This document shows positions 4,699-18,068 of a stretch of DNA of 25,786 bases, piece by piece (position 1 is the stretch's first letter; each line of letters opens with the position of its first letter). The DNA lies in the IMG/VR virus record IMGVR_UViG_3300029288_003766, positions 1-25,786 of that record, one strand, 5' to 3'. The notes under the pieces were generated by a model, which saw nothing but the letters and a program-made list of their open reading frames with translations, was not told the origin of the DNA and searched no databases. The stretch comes from a virus (lineage: Duplodnaviria; Heunggongvirae; Uroviricota; Caudoviricetes). The position numbers were made by a program, and so were the translations under genes.

Positions 4699-4726
4699 TT
4701 GACAACAATTGTTGTTTGTGTATAAT
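4699..4726 (+). promoter_or_regulatory. Sigma70-type promoter with a palindromic spacer
   Basis: TTGACA(4699-4704)-N16-TATAAT(4721-4726); perfect palindrome ACAACAATTGTTGT at 4702-4715. Confidence 0.8.
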
Positions 4727-4743
4727 AAAGACTCAAAGTGAAA

Positions 4744-4968
4744 GTACGGGGCGGTAGTGCAAACTATTAGGATCGGGCAAGCACAATACGTATAAAGGGA
4801 TAGTAAGAAGAGATAATTAGAATGAATTCGGATACGCCGATAAATTCTAAGCTGGACTGCTGAAGTATTCTGGACAAAAGTGGCGAAATACCATGCCCGG
4901 GAAAGGTAGGCAAATCCCAGTATTGAATCTGAACTCACATTCGTTCTAAGTTGTGCCCGCCCCGTACT
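4744..4968 (+). ncRNA. Unassigned structured ncRNA (~225 nt)
   Basis: Own promoter; perfect 12-bp terminal helix AGTACGGGGCGG/CCGCCCCGTACT; internal helices GCACAA/TTGTGC and TTAGAATGAAT/ATTCGTTCTAA; TAGT-GCAA-ACTA tetraloop; no credible + strand ORF. Confidence 0.7.
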
Positions 4969-4990
4969 GAAAAAATAATTAAAATAATAC

Positions 4991-5018
4991 TTGACAAAGA
5001 AAAACTTTTGTGTATAAT
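4991..5018 (+). promoter_or_regulatory. Sigma70-type promoter of the tRNA array
   Basis: TTGACA(4991-4996)-N16-TATAAT(5013-5018). Confidence 0.8.
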
Positions 5019-5040
5019 TAGATTTATAGATGAAATTACA

Positions 5041-5225
5041 GGGCTGTGGCGTAATGAATACGCTTTGATAAAGACTACTGCTTGTCGGGGCAGACCGACT
5101 AGTCAAAATCGAGATTAATAGGAGTTCACGGAACTCAAGCCGATGTGCCTTCGGTCAGGATAGGGAACCGCACTGGCGCTTACCAAAGCCTGAAAAACGT
5201 AGTAGGTAAAAATCCTACCAGCCCA
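5041..5225 (+). ncRNA. tRNA-like RNA with a ~115-nt structured insert in place of the anticodon loop
   Basis: Acceptor GGGCTG/CAGCCC, D-arm GCGT-AATGAAT-ACGC, T-arm GTAGG-TAAAAAT-CCTAC; insert has three hairpins. Confidence 0.65.
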
Positions 5226-5324
5226 TTATAAAAATATTTGTTTAGTTTTGTTTGACAAGACTTATATATATAGATAGGAATACAAAACTAATCTTTTAAA
5301 TATTTATGGAGTAAAACGATATAA

Positions 5325-5510
5325 ATGAATAAAAAATTTACCTCTTTTACTGGAGAAACTATAGAATCTGCACTTTTGATTGATGAAGGACCCGAAACTT
5401 GGTATGATTGCCTCCACGCGCATCAAAAGACTCCTGAGGGTAAAAGAGGACTTTGGAAAAATGGTATTGATTGGCGTTATGGGATAACTCCAGATGACTA
5501 TACAAATTAA
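5325..5510 (+). CDS. Hypothetical small protein
   Basis: 61-aa ORF filling the gap between two RNA genes; weak RBS. Confidence 0.5.
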   Translation: MNKKFTSFTGETIESALLIDEGPETWYDCLHAHQKTPEGKRGLWKNGIDWRYGITPDDYTN

Positions 5511-5546
5511 AATATTGCGGTATACTTTGTAGATACAGATTAGATT

Positions 5547-5634
5547 TGCGGGATAGGGTAAGAGCAACCCGTTTGGCTCATAACCAAAAGGTCCGAAAGG
5601 ATTACTGAATGTGCGACTCATTCTCCCGCTACCA
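5547..5634 (+). tRNA. tRNA-Met(CAT), initiator-like, with a long variable arm
   Basis: TGCGGGA/TCCCGCT (1-72 mismatch), G11-C24, TTTGG-CTCATAA-CCAAA, extra hairpin GGTCC-GAAA-GGATT, A73, CCA. Confidence 0.85.
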
Positions 5635-5710
5635 ACTATGAGTAAGATGTTTATAACTAAATAAGGTATAGCATGTTAGAACAGAACCCAGTTTAACAAG
5701 AAGTAACAAA

Positions 5711-5929
5711 GGAACGAACGATGATACTAAAAAGACATGAACATAAACAGGGGAGGCAATTAAGTCGCGCGACGGCGTTTTGGTCGCTGCCCTCTTATCG
5801 CCTCATGGCCATACGTCCATTGTCCGTTCCGAGCTGTACAGTCAATAAGACCGATTCAATTAGCTGAAACAACCCGGAATAGATAAGTAAGTAGGACGGG
5901 TTGTAAGGCTAAAAAGAAGTCGGTTTTTT
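5711..5929 (+). ncRNA. Candidate structured RNA: long bulged hairpin plus a second hairpin with a U-tract
   Basis: GGAACGAACGATG(5711-5723)/CATTGTCCGTTCC(5818-5830); GACCGATTC/GAAGTCGGTT, TTAGC/GCTAA, ACAACCCG/CGGGTTGT, then TTTTTT. Confidence 0.5.
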
Positions 5930-5938
5930 GTTTATATT

Positions 5939-6012
5939 GCCCTCGTAGAATAACGGTAGTTCGCTGGGTTTTCAGCCCAGAAGAGGCCGGTCAGCACGGC
6001 TCGGGGGCACCA
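5939..6012 (+). tRNA. tRNA-Glu(TTC)
   Basis: GCCCTCG/CGGGGGC, CTGGG-TTTTCAG-CCCAG, atypical T-loop GTCAGCA, CCA. Confidence 0.85.
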
Positions 6013-6131
6013 AAGTAGTAAGTAGTTGAGATGCTCATTGACAATTATACTGAAAAGACAAGTGTGCGAAGATGGAGAAAGGTGCACAGAAAAACTCCAA
6101 GTAATAGTAAATCCAAAGTCTTGTAGTGAAT

Positions 6132-6207
6132 GGCGATATCGTCTAACCGATCAGGACGGCGGTTTCTCAAGCCGCAAATCCGAGTTTGATTCTCGGCATC
6201 GCCACCA
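6132..6207 (+). tRNA. tRNA-Glu(CTC)
   Basis: GGCGATA/CATCGCC, GCGGT-TTCTCAA-GCCGC, CCA. Confidence 0.88.
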
Positions 6208-6212
6208 AATTT

Positions 6213-6291
6213 CCCCTGTTAGCATAGGCTGACTCAATGCGCTTGATTGTCAATCAAGAGATCAGGAGTTTAAATCTCCTACGGGGGGCCA
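6213..6291 (+). tRNA. tRNA-Asp(GTC)
   Basis: CCCCTGT/ACGGGGG, CTTGA-TTGTCAA-TCAAG, G73, CCA. Confidence 0.88.
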
Positions 6292-6299
6292 AATTTTTT

Positions 6300-6581
6300 G
6301 ATCGACGAACTGGCTAAGGTTGTATTGAAAGATATAACTTAGGAAAGTCCGGGCTACACAGAGCAACGCAGTAGGGCTAATAACCCTACCCAGTCGTAAG
6401 GCTGAGGATTTAGAGGACAGTGACGATGCCCATTGAATTAGCAATTCTTAATATGGGAGTGAGACGACCAATCTCTGCGTGTAGCAAGTACGAACAGAAC
6501 CTGACCTGCTCGGTCTATAGGTTCGGGTCACGTACGCTAAGACAGATGGCCAGATAAACAGAACCCGGCTTATCGAAGATC
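6300..6581 (+). ncRNA. rnpB: RNase P RNA, compact (~282 nt)
   Basis: P4 signatures GGAAAGTCCGGGC (6342-6354) and ACAGAACCCGGCTTA (6558-6572); P1, P2 (CTGGC/GCCAG), P3, P9 (CAGTC-GTAA-GGCTG) and P12 are foldable. Confidence 0.93.
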
Positions 6582-6593
6582 AAAATTATTAAT

Positions 6594-6681
6594 GGAAACA
6601 TGGCTGAGTCTGGTTTAAAGCGGCGCCGTGCTAAGGCGTTGATCGAAAGATCCGCAAGTTCGAATCTTGCTGTTTCCGCCA
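6594..6681 (+). tRNA. tRNA-Ser(GCT)
   Basis: GGAAACA/TGTTTCC, loop GTGCTAA, long V-arm, G73, CCA. Confidence 0.92.
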
Positions 6682-6686
6682 ATTAT

Positions 6687-6777
6687 GGAAGGTCTGAGCA
6701 TAGGCGCGCTCAACTGTCTTGAAAACAGTCAACGTTCGCAAGGGCGTTTGGGAGTCCAACTCTCCCACCTTCCGCCA
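6687..6777 (+). tRNA. tRNA-Ser(TGA)
   Basis: GGAAGGT/ACCTTCC, ACTGT-CTTGAAA-ACAGT, V-arm, C8, G73, CCA. Confidence 0.9.
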
Positions 6778-6898
6778 ATACTTAATAAAGACCTGGACGA
6801 AGATAACATCGCCTGATGAGCTTGGAGCAGAAATTCTACCAATAGTCGCCAGGATATTGCAAAAGTGAAAAGCTTTGCGGTCTTTGTTATAGTATAAT

Positions 6899-6987
6899 GG
6901 AAATGTGGCTGAGAATGGATTAAAGCGCTCGCTTGGAAAGCGGGTGGGTGATGAGCCCCGTAGGTCCGAATCCTACCGTTTCCGCCA
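6899..6987 (+). tRNA. tRNA-Ser(GGA)
   Basis: GGAAATG/CGTTTCC, CTCGC-TTGGAAA-GCGGG, V-arm, G73, CCA. Confidence 0.92.
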
Positions 6988-6989
6988 AT

Positions 6990-7075
6990 GGAAGAGCTGA
7001 GAACTGCTGATCTCACCCGTCTCGAAAACGGGAGCCGGAAACGGCTTACAGGTCGAACTCCTGTCTCTTCCGCCA
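6990..7075 (+). tRNA. tRNA-Ser(CGA)
   Basis: GGAAGAG/CTCTTCC, CCCGT-CTCGAAA-ACGGG, V-arm, C8, G73, CCA. Confidence 0.9.
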
Positions 7076-7167
7076 TAGATACGGGTGATATAAGATGAGC
7101 GCATTAGACGAAAAGTAAGACGACTCATTGTTCAGTTGCTGACGAGCGTAAATCTGGCTATCATCTT

Positions 7168-7247
7168 GGGTAGCTTGTGAGAGAGAAACTTACCTGAAAT
7201 TACCTCACGGGTAATATGGGCGGTTAGTGACCGTCAGCTATCCACCA
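7168..7247 (+). ncRNA. Atypical tRNA-like RNA with an 8-bp acceptor stem, possible CAC (Val) anticodon
   Basis: GGGTAGCT/AGCTATCC, A, CCA; D-arm GTGAG/CTTAC; ATTAC-CTCACGG-GTAAT; T-arm GGCGG-TTAGTGA-CCGTC; extra CTGAA linker. Confidence 0.55.
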
Positions 7248-7248
7248 T

Positions 7249-7322
7249 AAGGCACAAGTGTTACGACAGCATATCAATCTCCAAAATTGATGGACAAGGT
7301 TTAATTCCTTGGTGCCTTGCCA
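7249..7322 (+). tRNA. tRNA-Trp(CCA)
   Basis: AAGGCAC/GTGCCTT, TCAAT-CTCCAAA-ATTGA, G73, CCA; A8. Confidence 0.88.
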
Positions 7323-7382
7323 ATAAGATTGGCATTGAGATCGTGCCTATGAGGGTCTGAATAGCCCAGATCTCACCAATAT

Positions 7383-7457
7383 GACAGCGTGGCCGAGTGA
7401 TCAGGCAGACGCCTGCAAAGCGTCTTCACGGAGGTTTAAATCCTCTCGCTGTCTCCA
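7383..7457 (+). tRNA. tRNA-Cys(GCA)
   Basis: GACAGCG/CGCTGTC, GACGC-CTGCAAA-GCGTC, U73, CCA. Confidence 0.93.
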
Positions 7458-7473
7458 AAATTAAAGTATTAAA

Positions 7474-7547
7474 GGGTCCGATGCCGACTGGGTAGGCAAC
7501 TGGCTTTTAACCAGTACACAGAGCGAGTTCAATTCTCGCCGGACCCA
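7474..7547 (+). tRNA. tRNA-Lys(TTT)
   Basis: GGGTCCG/CGGACCC, ACTGG-CTTTTAA-CCAGT; A8; followed by CTA, not CCA. Confidence 0.88.
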
Positions 7548-7567
7548 CTAACTACAAGGGGTGTATA

Positions 7568-8236
7568 ATGTTTAGGAAATATGAGAAAACGTTTAGAATC
7601 GTTGTCCCAGAGATAGACGTTAGAGGGAAGTTCTTCCTTTCCAACAAAGAAGTCCAGCTATTACTAGCTGGTGATGTTATAGTAGAAGAGAAGATGGACG
7701 GGGCAAACACAGGGATCATCAGGCACAAGAGAGGATTCCATCTACAGAAACGTGGATCGCTGATGGAACAAGGAGAGCATGAGCAGTTTGGTTTCTTCTA
7801 TAACTGGGCCTATAGACAGAATTATGAGCTAGTTATGTCTATACCTATGAACCATATAGTATATGGTGAGCTACTTTACGCAACACATACCTTATATTAT
7901 GATAAACTGCCTAACTATTTCCTTGTCTTTGATGTATGGACTGGCCAGAAGTGGATGGACTATGATCAAAGAAACGAGTTCTGCACTAAATTTGGGTTTC
8001 ACCAGGTTCCTTTTATTACCAAAGGATCTTTTGGAGTATCTGATTTGTTCAGTCTGATTTCAGATAAGTCAGCTTATGGAGAAAAGTCAGAGGGGATAGT
8101 AATAAAGAGATACCGCAAAAATGAATATCTGCGTGGTAAGATTGTAAAAGCAGAGTTCATAAAGCACCTGGATGAAAATGATCATTGGATGAAATACAGT
8201 GTCAAGAGGAATAAGTTAGCAGAATTGGGTGTGTAG
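7568..8236 (+). CDS. ATP-dependent RNA ligase (nucleotidyltransferase superfamily)
   Basis: Motif I EEKMDGAN, YGELL, FLVFDV, EGIVIK, KIVKAEF; stop codon lies inside tRNA-Lys(CTT). Confidence 0.85.
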   Translation: MFRKYEKTFRIVVPEIDVRGKFFLSNKEVQLLLAGDVIVEEKMDGANTGIIRHKRGFHLQKRGSLMEQGEHEQFGFFYNWAYRQNYELVMSIPMNHIVYGELLYATHTLYYDKLPNYFLVFDVWTGQKWMDYDQRNEFCTKFGFHQVPFITKGSFGVSDLFSLISDKSAYGEKSEGIVIKRYRKNEYLRGKIVKAEFIKHLDENDHWMKYSVKRNKLAELGV

Positions 8237-8302
8237 CAAAACGGATAATGCAGCTGGCTCTTAACCAGCAGATTGGAGGTCCAAATCCTCTCACACCCAC
8301 CA
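8227..8302 (+). tRNA. tRNA-Lys(CTT)
   Basis: GGGTGTG/CACACCC, GCTGG-CTCTTAA-CCAGC, A73, CCA. Confidence 0.93.
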
Positions 8303-8303
8303 A

Positions 8304-8423
8304 GATAAGCTGGTAGACAAGGTTCAATTCCTTGCACTCATTTAAAAAAGCATTGAGCTCACAGAAGGCGCCAACCAGTGGGTGATAATGTAGTGGGGTG
8401 TAACGGTAGCACACCAGCAGTAA
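8304..8423 (+). ncRNA. Circularly permuted tRNA-like RNA (3' half precedes 5' half; YrlA-like topology)
   Basis: GCTGG(8309-8313)/CCAGC(8414-8418) closing stem; T-arm CAAGG-TTCAATT-CCTTG (8318-8334); CACTCAT/ATG(T)AGTG acceptor-like stem; D-arm GTGT-AACGGTA-GCAC (8398-8412). Confidence 0.7.
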
Positions 8424-8426
8424 TAT

Positions 8427-8501
8427 TGAGGAATCTGTCAACTGGTAGGCAACGGGCCTTTGAAGCCTGTAATGATGGATCGTACCCATCTTCCTCAACC
8501 A
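8427..8501 (+). tRNA. tRNA-Gln(TTG)
   Basis: TGAGGAA/TTCCTCA, CGGGC-CTTTGAA-GCCTG, T-loop ATCGTAC, CCA. Confidence 0.9.
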
Positions 8502-8513
8502 AATAACAAGTAT

Positions 8514-8584
8514 TGACGAGTGGTGTAGAGGACGCACGTTGCTCTCTGAAAGCAGAAGACAAGGATCGTTACCTTGCTCGTCAA
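8514..8584 (+). tRNA. tRNA-Gln(CTG)
   Basis: TGACGAG/CTCGTCA, TTGCT-CTCTGAA-AGCAG, T-loop ATCGTTA; followed by CTA. Confidence 0.9.
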
Positions 8585-8598
8585 CTAAAAGGAGTAAT

Positions 8599-9420
8599 AT
8601 GAAATATTATGGATATATCTATTTAGTAACTGACTTGTTAAACAAACATAACTTACCAAAACCTTTTTATGTAGGGCAAAGCAAAGGTAAATTTAAACCT
8701 AACTATTTTGGTAGTGGTAAATATATTAAACCTGTAGTTAGAAAGCACGACAGAAAAAACTTTAAAATTAAACTAATAAGTTGGGCTTATAGCAAGGAAG
8801 AACTAAATGAGTTAGAAATAGCTTGGATAGCTGATATAGATTGTATTTGGCCTAAAGGGTATAATTTATCAGAGGGTGGAGAAGGTGGAATTGGTATAAA
8901 ATCACATAAACTAAATTGTACTTGCCCATACTGCCAAATTGCAAGAGGAACATATCATCCTACAAGTGAGACAAAAGAGAAGCAACGTCAAGCTCATTTT
9001 AAGCATGCACTAAATTGCCAATGTATATCTTGTTTATGTGAAAGAGATGGAATCCATAAAGATAATTGTCAATGTGGTTCTTGCAAAAAGAAACGAGGAG
9101 AGCCGCGGAAATACATAATAAAAGGGGGATGTTCTGAGCATAAAGATAATTGTCAATGTGTTATTTGTTTAAATACTCGTAAGCAAAAACATGAAAGTAA
9201 TTGCAAATGTATACCCTGTAGGTATAAACGTAATGAATTGATAGTTCATAGAGATGATTGCCAATGTGCTAGTTGTGAAAGTAAACGAGGGATAGTACAT
9301 AAATCAATACATAAAAATAACTGCAATTGTTTTTGTTGTAGAAACAAACGTGGTGAACCATATAAAGGTAAGCCTAGGGGCAAGAAGAAAGAGGTGCACG
9401 ATGGAAAAGAAGCTTTTTGA
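8599..9420 (+). CDS. GIY-YIG (Seg-like) homing endonuclease with seven H-x3-C-x-C-x2-C repeats
   Basis: GYIYLVT...FYVGQS...YFGSG...LNELEIAWI...GYNLSEGGEG; start reassigned to ATG 8599 after AAGGAG. Confidence 0.8.
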   Translation: MKYYGYIYLVTDLLNKHNLPKPFYVGQSKGKFKPNYFGSGKYIKPVVRKHDRKNFKIKLISWAYSKEELNELEIAWIADIDCIWPKGYNLSEGGEGGIGIKSHKLNCTCPYCQIARGTYHPTSETKEKQRQAHFKHALNCQCISCLCERDGIHKDNCQCGSCKKKRGEPRKYIIKGGCSEHKDNCQCVICLNTRKQKHESNCKCIPCRYKRNELIVHRDDCQCASCESKRGIVHKSIHKNNCNCFCCRNKRGEPYKGKPRGKKKEVHDGKEAF

Positions 9421-10735
9421 TCTATTTACAAGTAAGGGCAAAGATCTTTATTTGGTAGGCGGTATAGTACGAGATAGAATTTTAGGAATAAGTAGCAATG
9501 ATTTAGATTTTGCTACAAATGCTTTGCCAAATGAATCACAAGAAATTCTAGAAGGAGCTGGTTATAAGGTTTATACTATCGGAGCTGCTTTTGGAACTGT
9601 AAGCATAATAGATAATGATTGTAAACTTGAGATAACTACCTATAGGAAGAATGAGAAGTATATTCGTGATAATCGTAGACCTGTGGTAGAATGGGGCAAG
9701 ACCATCGAAGATGATCTAATCCGTAGAGATTTCACTTTCAACGCTATGGCTATCGATAGGAATGATGCTTTAATTGATCCGTTCAACGGAAGATATTCTT
9801 TGGATAATAAAGTAATTGAAACTCCTATGGATGCTGAGGCAATCTTCAATGATGACCCTCTTCGCATTCTAAGGGCTGTTCGTTTCAGATCTCGTTTTGG
9901 ATTTAGTTATAGTGAGGGAGTGAAGAAGGCCTTGGCTTCTCAAGCTTACAGATTAATGTATCTTCCTAAGGAAAGGGTCTTGGATGAGTTAAATAAGATC
10001 CTTTTAGGTGATTATATTAAAGAAGCTTTAAATGATCTGCTTGAGTACAAGCTCCTAAATTATGTGATACCAGAGCTGACAGTTCTCAAGGATCTAAAGC
10101 AAGAAAGTAAGTTCCACCACAAGGATGCTTGGGAGCATACAGTCGGAGTTGTAGCTAATACACCGGCTGATTTAACTCTTCGCTGGGCAGCCTTGCTTCA
10201 TGATCTTGGCAAGCCATACACTTTTACATTTGAGAATAGTACAGTTCATTTCTACCGCCACGAGGATGTAAGTGCTATGCTCGCTCGATCAGTTGTTGAA
10301 AGACTGGGTTTACCAAGAAAGATGATTGAAGATGTTGTTTATCTTGTAAGAGAGCATATGAAGAGTAATCTTTATGGGGAGAACTGGAGTGATTCAGCAG
10401 TCCGAAGGTTTATCCGAGAAACAGATGGATATACTGACAGGCTGTTGACATTAAGCCATGCTGATATCACAAGTCACAATCCAATTACTGTGGCTAAGCA
10501 CCTTGATAGTCTCAGAGATCTAAGGAGACGAATTGAGGAGTTGAAGGCATACAAGGAAGTAAAGTGTCCTATTGGTGGAGATGTGATTATGAAATATTTT
10601 AATCTTACTACAGGTCCAGAGGTAGGCCGATTGAAGGATATCATAATGGAAGCTCTGACTAATGGGGAGCTTGAGTTAGGTCAAGAAGCAGAAGTGTATT
10701 TGAAGTATCTGGAAAACAAGATAAACGGAAAGTAG
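9401..10735 (+). CDS. cca: CCA tRNA nucleotidyltransferase with HD domain
   Basis: LVGGIVRD, DLDFAT, DLIRRDFTFNAMA, DDPLRILRAVRF, EHT...AALLHDLGKP; start ATG 9401 after GAGGTG; stop inside tRNA-Pro. Confidence 0.92.
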   Translation: MEKKLFDLFTSKGKDLYLVGGIVRDRILGISSNDLDFATNALPNESQEILEGAGYKVYTIGAAFGTVSIIDNDCKLEITTYRKNEKYIRDNRRPVVEWGKTIEDDLIRRDFTFNAMAIDRNDALIDPFNGRYSLDNKVIETPMDAEAIFNDDPLRILRAVRFRSRFGFSYSEGVKKALASQAYRLMYLPKERVLDELNKILLGDYIKEALNDLLEYKLLNYVIPELTVLKDLKQESKFHHKDAWEHTVGVVANTPADLTLRWAALLHDLGKPYTFTFENSTVHFYRHEDVSAMLARSVVERLGLPRKMIEDVVYLVREHMKSNLYGENWSDSAVRRFIRETDGYTDRLLTLSHADITSHNPITVAKHLDSLRDLRRRIEELKAYKEVKCPIGGDVIMKYFNLTTGPEVGRLKDIIMEALTNGELELGQEAEVYLKYLENKINGK

Positions 10736-12555: not shown

Positions 12556-12560
12556 TTATT

Positions 12561-12635: not shown

Positions 12636-12641
12636 AATATT

Positions 12642-12715
12642 GCCCGTGTAGGCTATTGGCAGACCGCCTGTTCCGTAAACAGGAAGATAGAGTTCGACTC
12701 TCTGTGCGGGCTCCA
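12642..12715 (+). tRNA. tRNA-Thr(CGT)
   Basis: GCCCGTG/TGCGGGC, CCTGT-TCCGTAA-ACAGG (C33), CCA. Confidence 0.87.
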
Positions 12716-12733
12716 AAATTAAAAGGAGATAAA

Positions 12734-13030: not shown

Positions 13031-13374
13031 TGGCTAACAAACTTTTATTTTCAGTAGGGAGAAAAGATTTCGATATTGAAACTTTTAGATCTGGTGGTAA
13101 GGGTGGTCAGAATCAGAACAAAGTTGAAAGTGGTGTTAGGATTAGACATTTAGAATCAGGTTGTGTTGCAGAATCAAGAGAAGAAAGAAGCCAAGGTCAA
13201 AATAAGCGTAAAGCATTCCTGAAACTTGTAAATAGTGATAAGTTCAGATCTTGGATCCGAATCAAGGCAGCCCAAGTAGCTCTAGTTATACCAACAAAGA
13301 AAGAGATGGAAAAGGCTGTTGAAGAAATGATGAAAGAAGAATACTTGAAGATCGAATACGCAGATAAGTTTTAA
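13030..13374 (+). CDS. Stand-alone class I release factor GGQ domain (ArfB/PrfH-like peptidyl-tRNA hydrolase)
   Basis: FRSGGKGGQNQNKVESGVRIRH...ESREERSQGQNKRKAF. Confidence 0.88.
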   Translation: MANKLLFSVGRKDFDIETFRSGGKGGQNQNKVESGVRIRHLESGCVAESREERSQGQNKRKAFLKLVNSDKFRSWIRIKAAQVALVIPTKKEMEKAVEEMMKEEYLKIEYADKF

Positions 13375-13379
13375 AATTT

Positions 13380-13455
13380 GCTGATGAAGCTCATTAGGAT
13401 GAGCGATGCCTTGGTAAGGCATAGGTAGCTGGTTCAATTCCAGTCATCAGCTCCA
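13380..13455 (+). tRNA. tRNA-Thr(GGT)
   Basis: GCTGATG/CATCAGC, ATGCC-TTGGTAA-GGCAT, A8, CCA. Confidence 0.92.
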
Positions 13456-13461
13456 AGATTT

Positions 13462-13536
13462 GCCCCTAAAGTGTTGATAGATACACGACTGCCTTCCAAG
13501 CAGTAGTAGAGACGGCGGTAGTCTCTAGGGGCTCCA
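13462..13536 (+). tRNA. tRNA-Gly(TCC), atypical T-loop
   Basis: GCCCCTA/TAGGGGC, ACTGC-CTTCCAA-GCAGT, GAGAC-GGCGGTA-GTCTC, A8, U73, CCA. Confidence 0.83.
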
Positions 13537-13542
13537 AGATAT

Positions 13543-13617
13543 GCCTCGTTAGCATAGACGGTAAGTGCGTCCGCCCGAAGAGCGGAAGAGAGGGCTCAAA
13601 AACCCTACGGGGCACCA
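13543..13617 (+). tRNA. tRNA-Phe(GAA)
   Basis: GCCTCGT/ACGGGGC, TCCGC-CCGAAGA-GCGGA (C33, G37), A73, CCA. Confidence 0.83.
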
Positions 13618-13622
13618 ACTAT

Positions 13623-13698
13623 TGGCAGATGGTATAATAGATATTACGCTCGCCTGTTAAGCGAGACGATGCTGGTTTGAGTCCAGCTCTGCCAGCCA
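13623..13698 (+). tRNA. tRNA-Asn(GTT)
   Basis: TGGCAGA/TCTGCCA, CTCGC-CTGTTAA-GCGAG, G73, CCA. Confidence 0.92.
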
Positions 13699-13716
13699 AT
13701 TTAAGGAGGTGACGGT

Positions 13717-14448
13717 ATGCCAAAAGGAGTTTATAAAAGAACAAAACCAACTTGGAATAAGGGAAAGAAGCTGCCTTATAAAGTTTGGAATAGTGGGAAG
13801 AAGTTGCCATTTACAATTTGGAATAAAGGACTTACAAAAGATACAGATAGTAGAATAAAAGAACAGGGAGAAAGATTATCAGTACGTTATAAAAACGGAG
13901 AGTTAAAACCATCATTTCTTGGTAAGCATCATACTAAGAAATCTAAAGAACGGATAGGACGATGTAAAAAAGGAAAAAAACTTACTAAAGAACAATGCGA
14001 AAATATATCGCGGTCTCAGATAGGCAAGGTTCTTTCTCAAGAACATAAAAATAGAATAGGGATATCCTGGAAACGAAATAAAAACAGAAATTTGGCGCAT
14101 GTTTTAGAATCTGTTTGCCGTCGTCCAAACAAATTTGAAACAAATGCTCTTAATTACTTGAATACTATTTACGAAAATAAATTTGTATATACTGGAGATG
14201 GTTCTTTAATAGTAGATGGAAGATCAGCAGATGCTTATTCAAAAGAGTTAAATACAGTTTGTTTATTTCAAGGAAACTATTTTCATTGCAACCCCCGAAT
14301 GTATAAATCGACTTATTACAACGGGTTAAGAAAGATGTTTGCAAAAGATATTTGGAAAAGAGATGCAGAATCTGTAAAGATGTTTAAAAGATCCAATTAT
14401 AGAGTTATTGTTATTTGGGAAGATACATTAAATAAATTAATAGATTAG
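13717..14448 (+). CDS. NUMOD-repeat protein with a C-terminal Vsr/DUF559-like PD-(D/E)XK nuclease (homing endonuclease-like)
   Basis: WNKGK/WNKGLTK repeats, GKHHTKKSKERI, GKVLSQEHKNRI; SADAY...FQGNYFHC...YRVIVIWE. Confidence 0.75.
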   Translation: MPKGVYKRTKPTWNKGKKLPYKVWNSGKKLPFTIWNKGLTKDTDSRIKEQGERLSVRYKNGELKPSFLGKHHTKKSKERIGRCKKGKKLTKEQCENISRSQIGKVLSQEHKNRIGISWKRNKNRNLAHVLESVCRRPNKFETNALNYLNTIYENKFVYTGDGSLIVDGRSADAYSKELNTVCLFQGNYFHCNPRMYKSTYYNGLRKMFAKDIWKRDAESVKMFKRSNYRVIVIWEDTLNKLID

Positions 14449-14459
14449 AGGTAAGAATT

Positions 14460-14850
14460 GGGGGTGAGAGGATTCGACTTATATGATCTAATGTTGAATG
14501 CATGCCGTGGACGTAATGATGGCCACGTTAAAATCATTGCAAAAATTAAACGCAGACGAAAATTCTCGTTTACTTAATTCAGCAAATGAAATTGTTTCAC
14601 CTATGTTTGCTGAATCTGTGTTAGCTACTATATAGCTAATCATCACTATCGTCAGGCACAGTGGCTTTAGTGATCTGGTATGTGCTCGTTCTATAGTTTT
14701 TCTCACCTATAGAATTAAATTAAGAGATTGTCAGTGTATATTATCTATTTCTGTTAAGATGATATATGCAAAGGTTTAGATAACAGAATAAGCATGTAGT
14801 ATTTTAACGTTTGTTTATATGAGGACCCGGTTTCGATACCGGCACCTCCA
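14460..14850 (+). ncRNA. ssrA: tmRNA; tag (A)DENSRLLNSANEIVSPMFAESVLATI* at 14552-14635
   Basis: 5' GGGGGTG-AGAGGATTCGAC; 3' CCGGTTTCGATACCGG-CACCTCC-A with G3-U70; TAAAC-GCA resume context; CCA not encoded. Confidence 0.93.
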
Positions 14851-14854
14851 CTAT

Positions 14855-14928
14855 GCAAGTGTCATCCAATCGGTCAGGATGCCAGTCCTACAAACTGAGA
14901 ATGAGGTTCGAGCCCTCCACTTGCACCA
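14855..14928 (+). tRNA. tRNA-Val(TAC)
   Basis: GCAAGTG/CACTTGC, loop CCTACAA (C33), A73, CCA. Confidence 0.85.
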
Positions 14929-14931
14929 TTT

Positions 14932-15007
14932 CCTAGCTTGGCTGAATAATTAGAGCGCTCCCCTTATAAGAGAGAATATGAAGGTGTGATTCCTTCAGCT
15001 AGGACCA
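14932..15007 (+). tRNA. tRNA-Ile(TAT)
   Basis: CCTAGCT/AGCTAGG, CTCCC-CTTATAA-GAGAG, A73, CCA. Confidence 0.83.
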
Positions 15008-15088
15008 AATTTACGAGGCTGTGGCGTGGTAGCCTGTGATGTGTTGATAAAATCAACCGCCATTATGCAGACCAACTGCTAGCCTTTT

Positions 15089-15164
15089 CTGCCTGTGGCT
15101 GAACGATAAGAGCGCCAAGCTGATAACTTGGAGTACGTAGGTCTAACTCCTACCGGGCAGACCA
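15089..15164 (+). tRNA. tRNA-Ile(GAT)
   Basis: CTGCCTG/CGGGCAG, CCAAG-CTGATAA-CTTGG, A73, CCA. Confidence 0.9.
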
Positions 15165-15169
15165 ATATT

Positions 15170-15244
15170 GGCTCGATGGCCGAATGGCATAGGCACCTGT
15201 TTCATAAGCAGGTTAAGAAGGTCCAATTCCTTCTCGAGCTACCA
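15170..15244 (+). tRNA. tRNA-Met(CAT), elongator (or Ile2)
   Basis: GGCTCGA/TCGAGCT, CCTGT-TTCATAA-GCAGG, A73, CCA. Confidence 0.88.
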
Positions 15245-15261
15245 AATTTATAGGAGGTTGT

Positions 15262-15450
15262 ATGAAAGAAAAAGATTTTAAGGATCTAAAGAAAAGTATT
15301 CAGCAAATGAAGGATATTCAAACAGGTAAATTAAGACCAAGGAGAACCTGGATTATAAATCCTAGTACTAAGATAAAAGAAAATAAAAAGTTCAGTGAAT
15401 CTCTAACTAAGAAAGAGATCAGGGATTTACTGAAGAAAGAGGACTACTAA
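15262..15450 (+). CDS. Hypothetical basic protein
   Basis: GGAGGT RBS; 62-aa ORF exactly filling an inter-tRNA gap. Confidence 0.7.
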   Translation: MKEKDFKDLKKSIQQMKDIQTGKLRPRRTWIINPSTKIKENKKFSESLTKKEIRDLLKKEDY

Positions 15451-15455
15451 ATAAC

Positions 15456-15532
15456 GCCCCCGTCGTTCAACTGAATAGGACCCTACCCCGCGAAGGTAGT
15501 GATTAGAGGTTTAAATCCTCTCGGGGGCACCA
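15456..15532 (+). tRNA. tRNA-Arg(GCG)
   Basis: GCCCCCG/CGGGGGC, CTACC-CCGCGAA-GGTAG (C33), CCA. Confidence 0.87.
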
Positions 15533-15546
15533 ATTAAGGAGAACTA

Positions 15547-16053
15547 ATGAACACTTATTTTACGAGTGACACTCACCTACAGCACGCTAATATAATCAAA
15601 TACTGTAATCGTCCGTTCAAAAATGTTGATGAAATGGATGAGACAATAATAACTAACTGGAACAGCATAGTTAAACACGATGATTTGGTCTATCATCTAG
15701 GTGACATTGGTTTTGGAGATATCAAAAATGTTTTACGTAGGTTAAACGGAAAGATAGTTTTAATACGCGGTAGTCATGACAAATCGGCATTAGCAGTTCC
15801 GGAAAGATTTGAAAGTACTTCCAGCTTATTAGAAATTAAGATTGACAGGCAGTATATTACGCTTTGTCATTACGCGATGAGGAGTTGGCCTCGTTCATTC
15901 CATGGAAGCTGGCATTTGTTTGGTCATAGCCATGGACGTTTACCACCTTTGGGCAAATCTTTCGACGTTGGCGTTGACAACCATAATTTTTACCCGTGGT
16001 CATTAGATGAAATTAAAGAAAAAATTAACTCTTTGGAAGAGAATGGAGATTAA
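15547..16053 (+). CDS. Calcineurin-like metallophosphoesterase
   Basis: SDTHLQH, HLGD, GSHD, LCHY, LFGHSH, DVGVD. Confidence 0.88.
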   Translation: MNTYFTSDTHLQHANIIKYCNRPFKNVDEMDETIITNWNSIVKHDDLVYHLGDIGFGDIKNVLRRLNGKIVLIRGSHDKSALAVPERFESTSSLLEIKIDRQYITLCHYAMRSWPRSFHGSWHLFGHSHGRLPPLGKSFDVGVDNHNFYPWSLDEIKEKINSLEENGD

Positions 16054-16059
16054 TTAGAA

Positions 16060-16608
16060 ATGCCTAAATTTATTGATTTAACAAATAAAACATTTGGTAG
16101 ATTATTAGTTATAAAAACAGCTAGAAATAATAGTGGAGTTTTGGGCTGGGTATGCAAATGTAGTTGCGGAAATAAATGTTGGACTAGAGGTGCCGAATTA
16201 ACTCGTGGATGTACAAAATCTTGTGGTTGTTTACGAGCAGAATTAATGAAAAATTTGGGGAAAAGAAGAACTGGCAAGGATAACAATAAATATAAGCACG
16301 GTTTATTTGGCACAAAAGAATATTATACTAAAATAATTTGGAAATATAGATTATTATCTAAATTTGGTATAACTGAACCAGAATATAATGCTAAATTAAT
16401 TAAACAAAAAAATAAATGTGCTATTTGTGGAACCTTACAAGAAAAAATTAAAATAAGACTTTGTGTAGATCATAACCATAAAACTGGACAAGTTAGAGGT
16501 TTACTTTGTAGAGAATGTAATTTTATGATTGGCAGAAGTAAAGAATCTATCGCCATACTAAATAAAGCAATAAAATATTTAACTAAATGGAATACTAAAT
16601 CTAAATAA
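16060..16608 (+). CDS. Endonuclease VII-domain protein (homing endonuclease-like)
   Basis: N-terminal DLTNKTFGRLLV...CKCSCG...SCGC; C-terminal KCAICG...LCVDHNHKTGQVRGLLCRECN. Confidence 0.85.
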   Translation: MPKFIDLTNKTFGRLLVIKTARNNSGVLGWVCKCSCGNKCWTRGAELTRGCTKSCGCLRAELMKNLGKRRTGKDNNKYKHGLFGTKEYYTKIIWKYRLLSKFGITEPEYNAKLIKQKNKCAICGTLQEKIKIRLCVDHNHKTGQVRGLLCRECNFMIGRSKESIAILNKAIKYLTKWNTKSK

Positions 16609-16612
16609 GTTT

Positions 16613-16687
16613 GCCCCAGTAGTGTAAAGGATAGCACGATAGTTTCCTAAACTGTAAGAGACAGTTCAAATCTGTCCCGGGGCACCA
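16613..16687 (+). tRNA. tRNA-Arg(CCT)
   Basis: GCCCCAG/CCGGGGC, ATAGT-TTCCTAA-ACTGT, CCA. Confidence 0.9.
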
Positions 16688-16779
16688 AATATTTACTACC
16701 TACTGAAAATCGTGTGTATGGCAGGGACCCTGTTGCCGAGATTCGATTGTATTAGTCAAAAGGGAAATAGGTAGATTAT

Positions 16780-16854
16780 CTGCCTGTAGTGTAAAGGACA
16801 GCACAATGGTCTTCGAAACCATTAGAGCTAGTTCGAATCTAGTCAGGCGGGCCA
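16780..16854 (+). tRNA. tRNA-Arg(TCG)
   Basis: CTGCCTG/CAGGCGG, ATGGT-CTTCGAA-ACCAT, G73, CCA. Confidence 0.9.
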
Positions 16855-16860
16855 ATAATT

Positions 16861-16936
16861 GCCTCTGTGGTATAATTGAATGTGCCTCGGTCTTCTAAAC
16901 CGATGTATGCGGGTTTGAATCCCGCCGGAGGCTCCA
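16861..16936 (+). tRNA. tRNA-Arg(TCT)
   Basis: GCCTCTG/CGGAGGC, TCGGT-CTTCTAA-ACCGA, CCA. Confidence 0.9.
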
Positions 16937-16955
16937 AACTTATAAAGGAGTAGAA

Positions 16956-17654
16956 ATGAAGACATTTGTAATTGGGGACATCCACGGATCCTACAAGGCC
17001 TTGATCCAGGTCCTTGAACGCTCAAAGTTTGATCGTGATAATGATAAACTGATCTGCCTTGGTGATGTATGCGATGGCTGGCCAGATGTTTATCGGGCTG
17101 TGGAAGAGCTGTTGAAGATCAAGAATCTGATCTATATTTTGGGGAATCATGATGATTGGAGTCTTGATTGGGCGTTGTTTGGCACTAGACCCGAGATCTG
17201 GACTAGCCAGGGTGGCAACAATACTATTGCCTCTTACGCACAGCATGGTGGATATATGCCTGAGAGCCATATCAAGCTCTTCAGGACCGCTCCAGTAAAG
17301 TATGTTGAAGATAACAAATTGTTTGTCCATGGGGGTATAGATCCTAATATTCCTTTAGAAAAACAACACCGAGATACACTTCTTTGGGATCGGAACCTTT
17401 TGATAAACTCAAAGATCAAGGGACATAATAGGCCTGATTACAAGTTTACTGACTTTGATGATATCTTTGTAGGCCATACTACAACCTGGATATTTAATAC
17501 AGATAAACCTGTCCACTACGCTGAGGTTTGGGGCCTGGATACGGGTGCCGGTTGGGAAGGAAAACTTACAATCATGGATATTGACACGAAAGAGTATTAC
17601 CAAAGTGATATCGTTTCAGATCTTTACCCAGGTGAACCTGGCAGGATGGGATAG
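16956..17654 (+). CDS. PPP-family metallophosphoesterase (lambda phosphatase/PrpA-like)
   Basis: GDIHG, LGDVCD, LGNHD, FVHGG, LWDR, VGHT, LDTGAG. Confidence 0.9.
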   Translation: MKTFVIGDIHGSYKALIQVLERSKFDRDNDKLICLGDVCDGWPDVYRAVEELLKIKNLIYILGNHDDWSLDWALFGTRPEIWTSQGGNNTIASYAQHGGYMPESHIKLFRTAPVKYVEDNKLFVHGGIDPNIPLEKQHRDTLLWDRNLLINSKIKGHNRPDYKFTDFDDIFVGHTTTWIFNTDKPVHYAEVWGLDTGAGWEGKLTIMDIDTKEYYQSDIVSDLYPGEPGRMG

Positions 17655-17669
17655 TTTACTGTAGATCAA

Positions 17670-17699
17670 AGTTTACAAATTTGTAAACTGTTGTAGAAT
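17670..17699 (+). promoter_or_regulatory. Sigma70-like promoter overlapped by a 20-bp palindrome, upstream of the tRNA-Leu cluster
   Basis: TTTACA(17672-17677)-N16-TAGAAT(17694-17699); perfect palindrome AGTTTACAAATTTGTAAACT at 17670-17689. Confidence 0.6.
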
Positions 17700-17704
17700 G
17701 AATT

Positions 17705-17778
17705 GCTCCCGTGTCCTAACTGGAAATGGAACTCTCCTCAAAAGTGAGTTACTGAAGGTTCGAATCCTTCCGGGAGTA
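17705..17778 (+). tRNA. tRNA-Leu(CAA), short variable loop
   Basis: GCTCCCG/CGGGAGT, loop CTCAAAA, variable TTACT, A73, then CTA. Confidence 0.83.
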
Positions 17779-17785
17779 CTAATAT

Positions 17786-17860
17786 GGCACAGTGAAGGCA
17801 ACTGGCAGACCTCTGATACTTAAAATATCAGGTATGAGAGTCCAAATCTCTCCTGTGCCA
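17786..17860 (+). tRNA. tRNA-Leu(TAA), short variable loop
   Basis: GGCACAG/CTGTGCC, TGATA-CTTAAAA-TATCA, A73, then CTA. Confidence 0.85.
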
Positions 17861-17869
17861 CTAAACTTT

Positions 17870-17943
17870 GTCCAAGTGGCGCAACTGGCAGACGCGGTTG
17901 GCTAAGAACCAGCTTTTTGGAAGTTCAAATCTTCTCTTGGACA
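17870..17943 (+). tRNA. tRNA-Leu(AAG), short variable loop
   Basis: GTCCAAG/CTTGGAC, GTTGG-CTAAGAA-CCAGC, variable TTTTT, A73, then CTA. Confidence 0.85.
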
Positions 17944-17947
17944 CTAT

Positions 17948-18024
17948 GGGCCGTTGATGCAACTGGCAGACATTTTACGCTTAGAACGTAAATTTTGGGG
18001 ATCCGAATTCCTCACGGCCTACCA
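17948..18024 (+). tRNA. tRNA-Leu(TAG), short variable loop
   Basis: GGGCCGT/ACGGCCT, TTACG-CTTAGAA-CGTAA, variable ATTTT, A73, CCA. Confidence 0.85.
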
Positions 18025-18028
18025 ATAA

Positions 18029-18068
18029 TAAAACCCTAGTAACCGAATGGCTACTAGGGTATTTTTTT
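18029..18068. terminator. Rho-independent terminator between convergent blocks, probably bidirectional
   Basis: ACCCTAGTA/TACTAGGGT stem followed by ATTTTTTT; A-rich 5' flank. Confidence 0.85.

Follow-up and report, generated by a model that had tools for sequence, protein, structure and literature searches.

A tRNA island with RNase P RNA and tmRNA genes in an uncultivated jumbo phage

An uncultivated jumbo phage carries 38 tRNA genes, covering all 20 amino acids, in a single transcription unit together with genes for an RNase P RNA, a tmRNA and proteins that would finish and repair RNA, and the gene order of this island is common to two metagenomic relatives. On balance, we favor the reading that the island is one jumbo-phage operon, a host-independent unit for tRNA biogenesis and upkeep that lets phage translation proceed without the host's tRNAs, whatever the cause of their depletion. 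With a full tRNA set, ribozyme, tmRNA and finishing and repair enzymes in hand, the phage can probably both produce and maintain decoding RNAs of its own.

Layout and tRNA content of the island

The window analysed here, a stretch of 25,786 nt, is the start of a 214,968-nt (~215 kb) IMG/VR virus record, IMGVR_UViG_3300029288_003766. Capsid, protease and DNA polymerase genes are carried by this record and no 16S rRNA was found in it, identifying a phage rather than a cell chromosome. The island (4699-18068, ~13 kb) is a single + strand unit bounded by two perfect sigma-70 promoters and a strong terminator; the ends first given for it from sequence alone are the start of promoter P1 and the end of the terminator. 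P1 and P2 are the sole 12/12 promoter matches in the 14 kb scanned; past the terminator, genes have the opposite orientation and the GC skew flips (at 18 kb).

4699-4726, +, promoter P1: TTGACA, 16 nt, TATAAT; 12/12 consensus
4743-4969, +, structured RNA directly 3' of P1, with a 12-bp GC-rich closing stem (z -2.7); no Rfam family matched
4991-5018, +, promoter P2: TTGACA, 16 nt, TATAAT; 12/12 consensus
18033-18068, +, intrinsic terminator: 12-bp stem, then a seven-T run

All components that the sequence-only reading had listed, namely the tRNAs, RNase P RNA, tmRNA, CCA enzyme, ligase, metallophosphoesterases and GGQ protein, were recovered where it had placed them, co-oriented within this unit. 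Its 38 tRNAs, grouped by amino acid, were borne out by three approaches. ARAGORN returned 32 tRNAs and one tmRNA, at 14460-14851, in the island and no tRNA anywhere else in the 215-kb genome; relaxed settings added Ser(cga) at 6990-7075, Phe(gaa) and Val(tac), and Rfam contributed the Pro(tgg)-like 10726-10798 together with 10803-10887. Thr(tgt) (12561-12635) and Gly(tcc) (13462-13536) came from a scan for acceptor stems beside T-arms, with 36 matches on the + strand of the island and one on the - strand; the 59 matches in the remaining 394 kb imply that about two would be expected in the island by chance.

5547-6291, +, 88-nt tRNA(CAT) with a long extra arm; Glu(ttc), Glu(ctc), Asp(gtc) (ARAGORN, Rfam)
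6594-7075, +, four tRNA-Ser (gct, tga, gga, cga), each with a long variable arm (ARAGORN, relaxed ARAGORN)
7249-7548, +, tRNA-Trp, tRNA-Cys, tRNA-Lys(ttt) (ARAGORN)
8227-8585, +, tRNA-Lys(ctt), a permuted tRNA-like element, tRNA-Gln(ttg), tRNA-Gln(ctg)
10726-11045, +, Pro(tgg)-like tRNA (10726-10798), a tRNA-like RNA, tRNA-Pro(tgg) (10902-10975), a mimic
11737-12203, +, tRNA-His, Tyr, Ala(tgc), an Ala-like mimic, tRNA-Gly(gcc)
12561-12715, +, tRNA-Thr(tgt), with C33 and an odd T-loop, and tRNA-Thr(cgt)
13380-13698, +, tRNA-Thr(ggt), Gly(tcc), Phe(gaa), Asn(gtt)
14855-15532, +, tRNA-Val(tac), Ile(tat), Ile(gat), Met(cat), Arg(gcg)
16613-16936, +, tRNA-Arg(cct), Arg(tcg), Arg(tct) (ARAGORN)
17705-18024, +, four tRNA-Leu (caa, taa, aag, tag), 75-77 nt each, with A73 and without a long variable arm

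The presence of Ile(tat) allows AUA decoding without lysidine. CCA is encoded in 31 of the 38 tRNAs (Rfam coordinates being used for some) and absent from the other seven and from the tmRNA, which gives the CCA-adding enzyme a necessary job.

Ribozyme, tmRNA and conservation in relatives

Structural selection acts on both of the larger RNAs of the island.

6298-6587, +, RNase P RNA, bacterial class A, 290 nt (RF00010, 103.5 bits)
14460-14853, +, tmRNA, ending 1 nt before tRNA-Val (ARAGORN; Rfam, 128 bits)

The ribozyme scores barely over the RF00010 gathering score of 100, and that of a relative falls under it (93.4 bits). It is reduced, with P18 absent and the P12-P14 region truncated, and retains the conserved P4 flanks, the bulged U and the GGU of L15. 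Relative to the ribozyme of one metagenomic relative, L121 (67% identical), 78/78 pairs are kept, 18 of them by compensatory changes that include two in P4; when the partners were slid by 1-3 columns as a control, the compensatory count fell to 0-2. In the tmRNA the acceptor pair is G3-U, the resume codon is GCA, the 27-aa tag ends in ATI and the 3' end is ACUA. Its structure is kept in the other relative, L129, with 19 compensatory pairs, and the tag peptide (27-28 aa) is conserved there.

The ribozyme lies 6 nt 3' of tRNA-Asp and 6 nt 5' of tRNA-Ser, a tight flanking that recurs in five other contigs (L013, L020, L037, L040 and L121). Ten large viral contigs were confirmed to have RNase P RNA within tRNA arrays. 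Different phage lineages are involved: among the 18 RNase P-bearing or motif-bearing contigs, 16 have an unrelated capsid protein. We found no paper that describes a phage-borne RNase P ribozyme. Its pairing with tmRNA, part of the combination with mimics that had been called unusual, is not unique: of 13 further large viral contigs that bear RNase P RNA, no fewer than five also encode a full tmRNA, in most cases at a long distance from the ribozyme.

Comparison with L121 and L129 upheld the synteny of the island. Could the region nonetheless have built up by accretion and be no system at all? Homing endonucleases and other mobile cargo gather in phage tRNA arrays; on this reading the enzymes and odd RNAs would owe their place solely to the region's tolerance of insertions and its strong transcription, and the tRNA mimics would be decaying tRNA genes. 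Four of the 11 island ORFs are selfish, homing-endonuclease-type genes, missing from the sequence-only list, as follows, with one further small ORF.

8539-9420, +, homing-endonuclease-like ORF (phrog_314, 5.8e-20); given the overlap of the listed start with tRNA-Gln, translation probably begins further downstream
11067-11579, +, HNH homing endonuclease, with homologues in L121 and L129
13717-14448, +, 243-aa ORF, weakly homing-endonuclease-like
16060-16608, +, ORF with an endonuclease VII domain, probably mobile
12220-12555, +, small cysteine-rich protein (PF04071), syntenic in L121

Accretion would also fit L129, which lacks both metallophosphoesterase 1 and the endonuclease VII ORF and has its GGQ gene at a different place within the array, and the scatter of components in other RNase P-bearing phages, where tmRNA, CCA and GGQ genes lie far apart, so that clustering is not required. 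However, relatives retain both RNAs (ribozyme and tmRNA) with compensatory changes, and the CCA enzyme, ligase, GGQ protein and metallophosphoesterase 2 with 56-83% protein identity; these retained parts are predicted to act on tRNA or the ribosome, unlike random cargo, and the ribozyme and tmRNA are positioned so that tRNA processing would set their ends. We consider accretion alone improbable.

Putative repair proteins, tRNA-like RNAs and possible counter-defence

Five proteins encoded between the tRNAs are predicted to act on RNA or the ribosome.

7568-8236, +, ATP-dependent RNA ligase, 222 aa, nucleotidyltransferase domain only (PF09414, 114 bits)
9350-10735, +, class II CCA-adding enzyme with a C-terminal HD (HDIG) domain (TIGR02692, 357 bits)
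13030-13374, +, stand-alone GGQ-domain protein, 114 aa
15547-16053, +, metallophosphoesterase 1, 168 aa (phrog_547, 5e-52)
16956-17654, +, metallophosphoesterase 2, 232 aa, lambda-phosphatase/ApaH type (phrog_246)

The ligase motifs KxDG, EG and GK..K are invariant among 20 homologues, and the TAG stop of its gene forms positions 8-10 of tRNA-Lys(ctt). The CCA enzyme is 65% identical to its L121 homologue, and metallophosphoesterase 2 is 56% identical to that of L129. In other phages the ligase family adjoins Tpt1, Metallophos, Ro60, Rnl2 and RtcB; metallophosphoesterase 1 shares 53% identity with a protein of contig L122 that adjoins a P-loop kinase, and the ligase and one phosphoesterase recur beside known RNA-repair genes (Tpt1, P-loop kinase, Rnl2, Ro60, RtcB). 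These neighborhoods support the healing and sealing function proposed from sequence alone, although the phage genome yielded no polynucleotide kinase, which leaves a T4-like route incomplete. PrrC leaves 2',3'-cyclic phosphate and 5'-OH ends, and an ATP-dependent ligase cannot seal such breaks unless another enzyme adds the 5' phosphate.

The GGQ protein was considered as an ArfB-like factor and rejected, as it lacks the ArfB-defining basic tail. For the same reason, the second of the two rescue routes initially suggested, that by the GGQ protein, is conjectural. The tRNA-like RNAs, put at no fewer than six by the first reading, are present and were counted as five or six.

5041-5225, +, tRNA-like body with a ~115-nt inserted domain, directly 3' of P2 (z -3.5; 0/200 shuffles match its folding)
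7168-7245, +, tRNA-like RNA with a 7-bp acceptor stem, T-arm, encoded ACCA and 5-nt 'anticodon' loop (z -3.1)
8304-8423, +, permuted tRNA-like element
10803-10887, +, tRNA-like RNA with an over-long anticodon arm (Rfam)
10979-11045, +, mimic with a 5-nt loop
11992-12121, +, Ala-like mimic with G3-U70, A73, CCA and a ~60-nt D-loop insert

The second, fourth, fifth and sixth of these have unusable anticodon arms. None of the three mimics compared with L121 has a conserved counterpart there, including 7168-7245, and the site of 11992-12121 is occupied in L121 by a canonical tRNA-Ala(ggc). Decaying tRNA genes, as the accretion reading has it, therefore fit better than selected decoys.

These observations bear on a second alternative, the specific counter-defence module that the sequence-only reading had advanced, aimed at anticodon nucleases of the host and at related immunity that targets tRNAs. 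In this view nuclease-resistant tRNAs would stand in for host tRNAs lost to cleavage, the ligase together with the phosphoesterases would reseal cut ones, mimics would be decoys, and tmRNA and the GGQ protein would clear ribosomes stalled by tRNA loss. Earlier work shows PARIS and retron effectors neutralised by phage tRNAs (PMC11464382, PMC11555353) and proposes nuclease evasion via anticodon-loop changes (PMC10264068). In the island, seven tRNAs have C33 instead of the near-universal U33, shared with L121 in tRNA-His and tRNA-Ala(tgc). The phage context, co-oriented unit, synteny, RNA selection and repair-gene neighbors of the proposed module all hold, whereas its T4-like sealing route, GGQ route, decoys and unusual RNA pairing are unsupported or weakened. 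In addition, a small temperate phage that has no tRNA array also carries the GGQ family, and a scan of 10 island ORFs for defence and anti-defence families gave nothing more specific than generic nuclease and HD-domain matches. We regard dedicated counter-defence as possible and less likely than a general operon for tRNA supply.

Proposed route and known systems

Under the favored reading of a host-independent operon, a ~13-kb precursor would be transcribed from the two consensus promoters. The reduced RNase P RNA, with host RnpA, would cut the 5' ends of the 38 idiosyncratic tRNAs and the tmRNA, and the cut at tRNA-Ser, 6 nt downstream, would release the ribozyme's own 3' end. The CCA enzyme would finish the seven tRNAs and the tmRNA and mend frayed 3' ends, while the phosphoesterases and ligase may trim and reseal broken RNA ends, and the tmRNA (with host SmpB) and GGQ protein may free stalled ribosomes. 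As genes for RnpA, SmpB and polynucleotide kinase were not found in the phage genome, three steps would depend on host partners.

The island resembles the T4 cluster, in which tRNA genes accompany an end-healing phosphoesterase and an ATP-dependent RNA ligase (Pnkp and Rnl1, acting against PrrC). It differs from T4 in the kinase, which was not found in this phage, in its phosphoesterases, which are calcineurin-type metalloenzymes unlike the T4 phosphatase domain, and in its ligase, which is a lone nucleotidyltransferase domain with no PDB match by sequence.

With bacterial class-A RNase P RNA (RF00010; E. coli M1 RNA), the ribozyme has in common the P1-P5 core, the P4 pseudoknot with its bulged U and conserved flanks, and the L15 GGU that binds the tRNA 3' CCA, within 290 nt as against the 367 positions of the model. 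Unlike the bacterial RNA, it is virus-encoded, in a genome without rnpA, and embedded in its own substrate precursor.

Cluster C1 mycobacteriophage arrays hold ~36 tRNAs (PMC10264068), and, like the tRNAs that defeat PARIS and retrons, such large sets with altered anticodon loops are read as insurance against host tRNA loss; the cited passages (PMC10264068, PMC11464382, PMC11555353) report tRNAs only and no phage ribozyme for tRNA maturation. The island also resembles the translation gene sets that Al-Shayeb et al. 2020 (PMC7162821) described in huge uncultivated phages, where tens of tRNAs occur with tmRNA, a CCA-adding enzyme and release factors. RNase P occurs nowhere in that paper; relative to those sets, the island has a ribozyme gene inside the tRNA array and all parts in one 13-kb unit.

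A tRNA transcription unit in a jumbo phage genome

The island of tRNA genes on the + strand of the window (4699-18068) belongs to a 214,968-nt genome, an IMG/VR virus record whose positions 1-25,786 make up the window, rated complete by CheckV, with a G+C content of 37%. This genome encodes a major head protein, a prohead protease, a family-A DNA polymerase, an SbcCD-like nuclease and GroEL, with a large terminase recognised by a weak match only, and no 16S rRNA was found along its full length. The phage structural genes and the lack of 16S rRNA led us to reject a cellular origin; the contig is viral, not, as the sequence-only reading had considered, a chromosome segment bearing a cell's sole housekeeping set. 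A genome above 200 kb, phage structural genes and a negative ribosomal RNA (16S) search identify it as a jumbo phage. The best match of the head protein among 50,697 GenBank phage records is only 27% identical, and the island had no megablast match in the same records; the phage is a new lineage of jumbo phage. Directly upstream of the island (window 225-4686) lies a sugar-modification gene set comprising a radical SAM/SPASM protein, a methyltransferase, a UDP-GlcNAc 2-epimerase, a PseB-like dehydratase and an RmlD-like reductase. Host prediction was tried with the epimerase, whose genome matches are scattered, the nearest in a methanogen (an archaeon, 55%) and the next in several proteobacteria (43-44%).

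Two sigma-70 promoters with 12/12 consensus positions occur at 4699-4726 and 4991-5018, with no others in the region, and a 12-bp hairpin followed by seven T is found at 18033-18068, beyond which gene direction and GC skew reverse. Because these elements bound 4699-18068, the island corresponds to exactly one promoter-to-terminator unit, which together with the gene inventory confirms the original observation as a whole. Each promoter directly precedes a stable structured RNA of about 185-230 nt (window 4743-4969 and 5041-5225), neither with an Rfam family match. In the relative L121, a 10.6-kb metagenomic contig, the equivalent region also combines a promoter of this kind with a structured stretch free of genes, but its sequence is not similar.

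ARAGORN called 32 tRNAs and a tmRNA, all on the + strand at 5547-18024 and none elsewhere in the genome. Relaxed ARAGORN settings added Ser(cga), Phe(gaa) and Val(tac), Rfam added a Pro(tgg)-like gene at 10726 and a tRNA-like RNA at 10803, and a scan of our own for acceptor and T-arms added Thr(tgt) and Gly(tcc), both with odd T-loops. The scan, which required a perfect 7-bp acceptor stem immediately adjoining a T-arm, gave 36 matches on the + strand of the island and one on its - strand; with 59 matches in the other 394 kb (both strands), about two are expected in the island by chance. The three methods bear out 38 tRNAs for all 20 amino acids, arranged by amino acid. With Ile(tat), four Arg, four Leu, four Ser and three Thr, the set would read every sense codon if single U34 tRNAs suffice for the Pro, Ala and Val boxes. 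CCA is encoded in 31 of the 38, a count for which the ends of the Phe and Val tRNAs were shifted by 1 nt to fit Rfam coordinates; the seven without it are Lys(ttt), Gln(ctg), both Pro, Leu(caa), Leu(taa) and Leu(aag). A lone element 44 kb off the island (genome 61857-61935), uncalled by ARAGORN, has a perfect 7-bp acceptor-like stem and a canonical T-arm, GTAGG TTCGAGT CCTAC.

Two relatives, from samples ERR14149396 and ERR13950640, were found via ligase and GGQ homologues and share the gene order of the island. In L121, whose ligase is 83% identical, the order matches that of the window from Glu, Glu, Asp, ribozyme, three Ser, Trp, Cys, Lys and ligase through Lys, two Gln, CCA enzyme, two Pro, HNH, His, Tyr, two Ala, Gly and a zinc-finger-like protein. 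L129 covers the right half (GGQ protein 69%, metallophosphoesterase 2 56% and HNH 60% identical), running His, Tyr, Ala, Gly, then Asn, tmRNA, Val, Ile(tat), two Arg, GGQ, Arg, two Leu, HNH, Leu, Met and phosphoesterase before converging tail-like genes. A small cysteine-rich protein (PF04071; window 12220-12555, L121 9974-10396) occupies the same place after tRNA-Gly(gcc) in window and L121. Four island ORFs are of homing-endonuclease types, as a mere accretion of genes might include, and for the parts conserved in the relatives such an origin is very unlikely. The island is probably one co-transcribed operon that supplies, matures and maintains tRNAs and so releases phage translation from dependence on the tRNAs of the host.

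An RNase P RNA embedded in the array

The RNase P RNA at 6298-6587 is of class A and matches the whole length of the RF00010 model, scoring 103.5 bits against a threshold of 100. In the Rfam alignment, P18 is absent (0/24 positions) and the P12-P14 region is much shortened; the phage ribozyme thus lacks the full specificity domain (P13, P14) and P18, helices that are dispensable in some bacteria. As the score is marginal, independent support was sought in L121, whose ribozyme is 67% identical and, at 93.4 bits, falls under the RF00010 threshold. The structure compared included the P4 pseudoknot and draws on two sequences, window and L121, which do not amount to a phylogeny. All 78 of its 78 pairs form in both ribozymes, 18 of them by compensatory change, including two in P4. 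When the partners were slid by 1-3 columns, 0-2 compensatory pairs remained, and none of 500 shuffles matched the observed values. P4 has seven pairs common to both RNAs, with double changes from A-U to C-G and from G-C to U-G; its bulged U is unpaired in both and the flanking sequences are conserved. L15 retains its unpaired GGU in both RNAs, the contact site for the substrate's 3' CCA in bacterial RNase P. The covariation is strong evidence that the ribozyme fold is under selection.

The ribozyme lies 6 nt downstream of tRNA-Asp and 6 nt upstream of tRNA-Ser(gct). Its putative activity is cleavage of pre-tRNA 5' leaders, and from this layout a cut at the 5' end of tRNA-Ser(gct) would also make its own 3' end. 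A phage-encoded RnpA was rejected, as no rnpA was found in the phage genome; the ribozyme must therefore act alone or borrow the host protein.

A blastn search with the ribozyme against the 50,697 GenBank phage records gave no match, and the more canonical phage ribozyme of another viral contig, L052, retrieved only four unannotated metagenomic records. An exact 14-nt P4 motif occurs in more than 114 IMG/VR loci. Among 13 contigs examined (85-463 kb), 10 contain an RF00010 match above threshold, of 207-358 nt, most of them inside tRNA arrays and often within 10 nt of a tRNA. Five of the 13 have a full tmRNA, five a GGQ-domain gene and seven a CCA enzyme, usually tens of kilobases from the ribozyme. 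The capsid protein of our phage is unrelated to those of 16 of 18 ribozyme-bearing or motif-bearing contigs, so the RNase P RNA trait spans phage lineages. On the 191-kb viral contig L080, the RF00010 match (10596-10802; 118.5 bits) is just 207 nt long and may rank with the smallest RNase P RNAs of class A.

RNA-end repair and tRNA mimics

The CCA enzyme has class II head, body and HD domains, with matches to PF01743, PF12627 and PF01966, and scores 357 bits against TIGR02692, for which the cut-off is 439. CCA enzymes supply its best-scoring models and PcnB scores far lower, which is suggestive of CCA addition rather than addition of poly(A) or A only. The search of IMG/VR loci for the CCA enzyme found no close relative.

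The RNA ligase consists of a 222-aa nucleotidyltransferase domain (PF09414 superfamily) with motif I (KxDG) and motifs III-V; residues K42, D44, G45, E101, E175 and K191 are invariant in 20 homologues. Its family has at least 256 members, which in other viral contigs adjoin Tpt1 and a metallophosphoesterase (L126) or Ro60, an Rnl2-like ligase, a metallophosphoesterase and a P-loop kinase (L122), share a 20-kb neighbourhood with RtcB (L123) or, in one further contig, lie near RNase T and a GGQ gene. Metallophosphoesterase 1 of the island is 53% identical to the L122 protein that adjoins the P-loop kinase, and metallophosphoesterase 2 is of the lambda-phosphatase/ApaH type; these two and the HD domain are candidates for 2',3'-phosphate removal. 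By analogy with these contexts in other phages, which lend it support, the ligase and phosphoesterases may act in RNA-end repair. The phage has a second PF09414 ligase, Rnl2-like and 305 aa long (genome 58986-59903), with no kinase or phosphatase adjoining it.

The TAG stops of the ligase (8234-8236) and the CCA enzyme (10733-10735) coincide with U8-A9-G10 (positions 8-10) of the tRNA that follows. The CCA gene of L121 stops 1 nt short of its following tRNA; the L121 ligase stops 38 nt short of tRNA-Lys, within another tRNA-like element (L121 5496-5568). Deliberate placement of the stops was rejected, the exact register not being conserved in L121.

A 5'-OH polynucleotide kinase was not found in the genome, where PF13671 gave only two matches, of P-loop length, at 13.6 bits. 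A Pnk-type kinase was rejected, as the L122 kinase used as query retrieved a single weak ORF without a P-loop. The T4-style healing and sealing route that had been proposed thus lacks a step for 5'-OH breaks, unless the host or an unrecognised enzyme supplies the kinase activity or the breaks in question are already 5'-phosphorylated.

Five or six tRNA-like RNAs of the island have acceptor and T-arms and are unable to decode.

tRNA mimics of the island (window coordinates, strand, distinguishing feature)
7168-7245, +, 5-nt 'anticodon' loop
10979-11045, +, 5-nt 'anticodon' loop
10803-10887, +, over-long anticodon arm
11992-12121, +, alanine identity marks and a 60-nt D-loop insert
8304-8423, +, circularly permuted
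5041-5225, +, 115-nt insert

Three of the mimics were compared with L121: a normal tRNA-Ala(ggc) stands in the place of the 11992 mimic, and those at 10979 and 7168 have no counterpart there. The mimics are thus real sequence features, and the decoy role suggested for them found no comparative support among these three. L121 has a 117-nt tRNA-like element of its own (2725-2841), which lies between Glu(ctc) and Asp, carries a canonical T-arm and has no counterpart in the window; tRNA-like oddities therefore turn over fast in this lineage. The mimic pattern fits that expected of decaying or fast-turnover tRNA genes, and some mimics may have lineage-specific functions.

The sequence-only reading had joined these parts into a single counter-defence module against host anticodon nucleases. 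The repair enzymes and their contexts make a dedicated module of this kind plausible; with gaps at the kinase and at the decoys, we consider it rather unlikely. An operon for host-independent tRNA biogenesis and upkeep, the reading we prefer, would itself unite all the RNA-level steps open to attack by bacterial immunity that targets tRNA.

tmRNA, GGQ protein and deviant tRNAs

The tmRNA (RF00023, 128 bits) has tRNA-Ala-like ends with a G3-U70 acceptor pair, a GCA resume codon and a 27-aa tag frame; its 3' end is ACUA, with no encoded CCA. The window and L129 tmRNAs have 77 predicted pairs in common, 19 of them compensatory. The tag peptide is alike in the two (window 14552-14635; L129 3181-3580) despite many synonymous changes, and at 27-28 aa is unusually long. 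It ends in ATI in the window and AVI in L129, not in an ALAA-type ClpXP signal, and tagged proteins may therefore not reach ClpXP. A phage-encoded SmpB was rejected, as the search of the phage genome gave no such gene.

The family of the 114-aa GGQ protein (window 13030-13374) comprises at least 887 stand-alone proteins, about 110 aa long and resembling release-factor domain 3; most are from metagenomic contigs, often large and phage-like, and one is encoded by a 43-kb temperate phage that has no tRNA array. The motif SGGKGGQNQNK is invariant across the family, and the C-terminus is a conserved helical region of mixed charge, non-basic, ending in NLKIEY. ArfB (YaeJ) senses the empty mRNA channel with a basic C-terminal tail, which the GGQ protein lacks. 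The ArfB model scores 27 bits over 32 residues only, and the best fold for the structure model (pLDDT 83) is domain 3 of RF1/RF2, followed by PrfH and mtRF-R. On these three grounds, we rejected an identity as ArfB.

The tRNAs of the island deviate strongly from the canonical form. T-loop TTC (positions 54-56) is kept in about 11 of the 38 (about 30%). Counting ARAGORN-called genes only, its share is 31% in the window, 25% in L121, 36% in L129 and 53% in L015, a further viral contig, and 70-100% in eight other ribozyme-bearing phage arrays. Recurrent T-loop variants are TTTAAAT, TCCAAAT and ATCGTxx, and the Gln-type ATCG loop is common to window and L121. C33 replaces the near-universal U33 in seven tRNAs (window 11737-15532): His, Ala(tgc), Thr(cgt), Thr(tgt), Phe, Val and Arg(gcg). 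As L121 (4250-9489) also has C33 in His and Ala(tgc), along with Trp and Pro(cgg), the change is inherited and not an error. All four tRNA-Leu (window 17705-18024) are 75-77 nt long, with A73 and without the long variable arm. In L129 (6442-7405), Leu(caa) and Leu(taa) are short too, and Leu(tag) has 84 nt.

The drift in T-loops (about 30% TTC), in the seven C33 and in the four armless tRNA-Leu invites a bolder interpretation, namely that the lineage runs a partly orthogonal tRNA system in which its own trimmed RNase P co-evolved with drifted tRNAs that evade host nucleases. Host nucleases that target tRNA would then cut the decoding RNAs of the phage poorly, and these RNAs would still be matured and used. 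The two most deviant tRNA arrays do accompany the two lowest-scoring ribozymes, yet L080, with its 207-nt ribozyme, has 100% canonical T-loops. With this counterexample the evidence for tying T-loop decay directly to ribozyme shrinkage is mixed, and ribozyme-substrate co-evolution is therefore an idea, not a result; we regard an orthogonal system as improbable. The trimmed ribozyme is a candidate explanation for how strongly deviant phage tRNAs are processed.

We found no description of a phage-encoded RNase P RNA in a full-text literature search that took in a 2024 RNase P review, an RNase P finder paper, a huge-phage paper and jumbo-phage reviews and few subscription journals. With this island one can ask concretely whether phages take charge of tRNA maturation besides tRNA supply, and the compact natural ribozymes, of 290 nt here and 207 nt in L080, bear on the minimal requirements of RNase P. 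To our knowledge, RNase P RNA is regarded as a strictly cellular, universal housekeeping ribozyme; here it appears to be under structural selection in a phage lineage, embedded in the very precursor that it should process.
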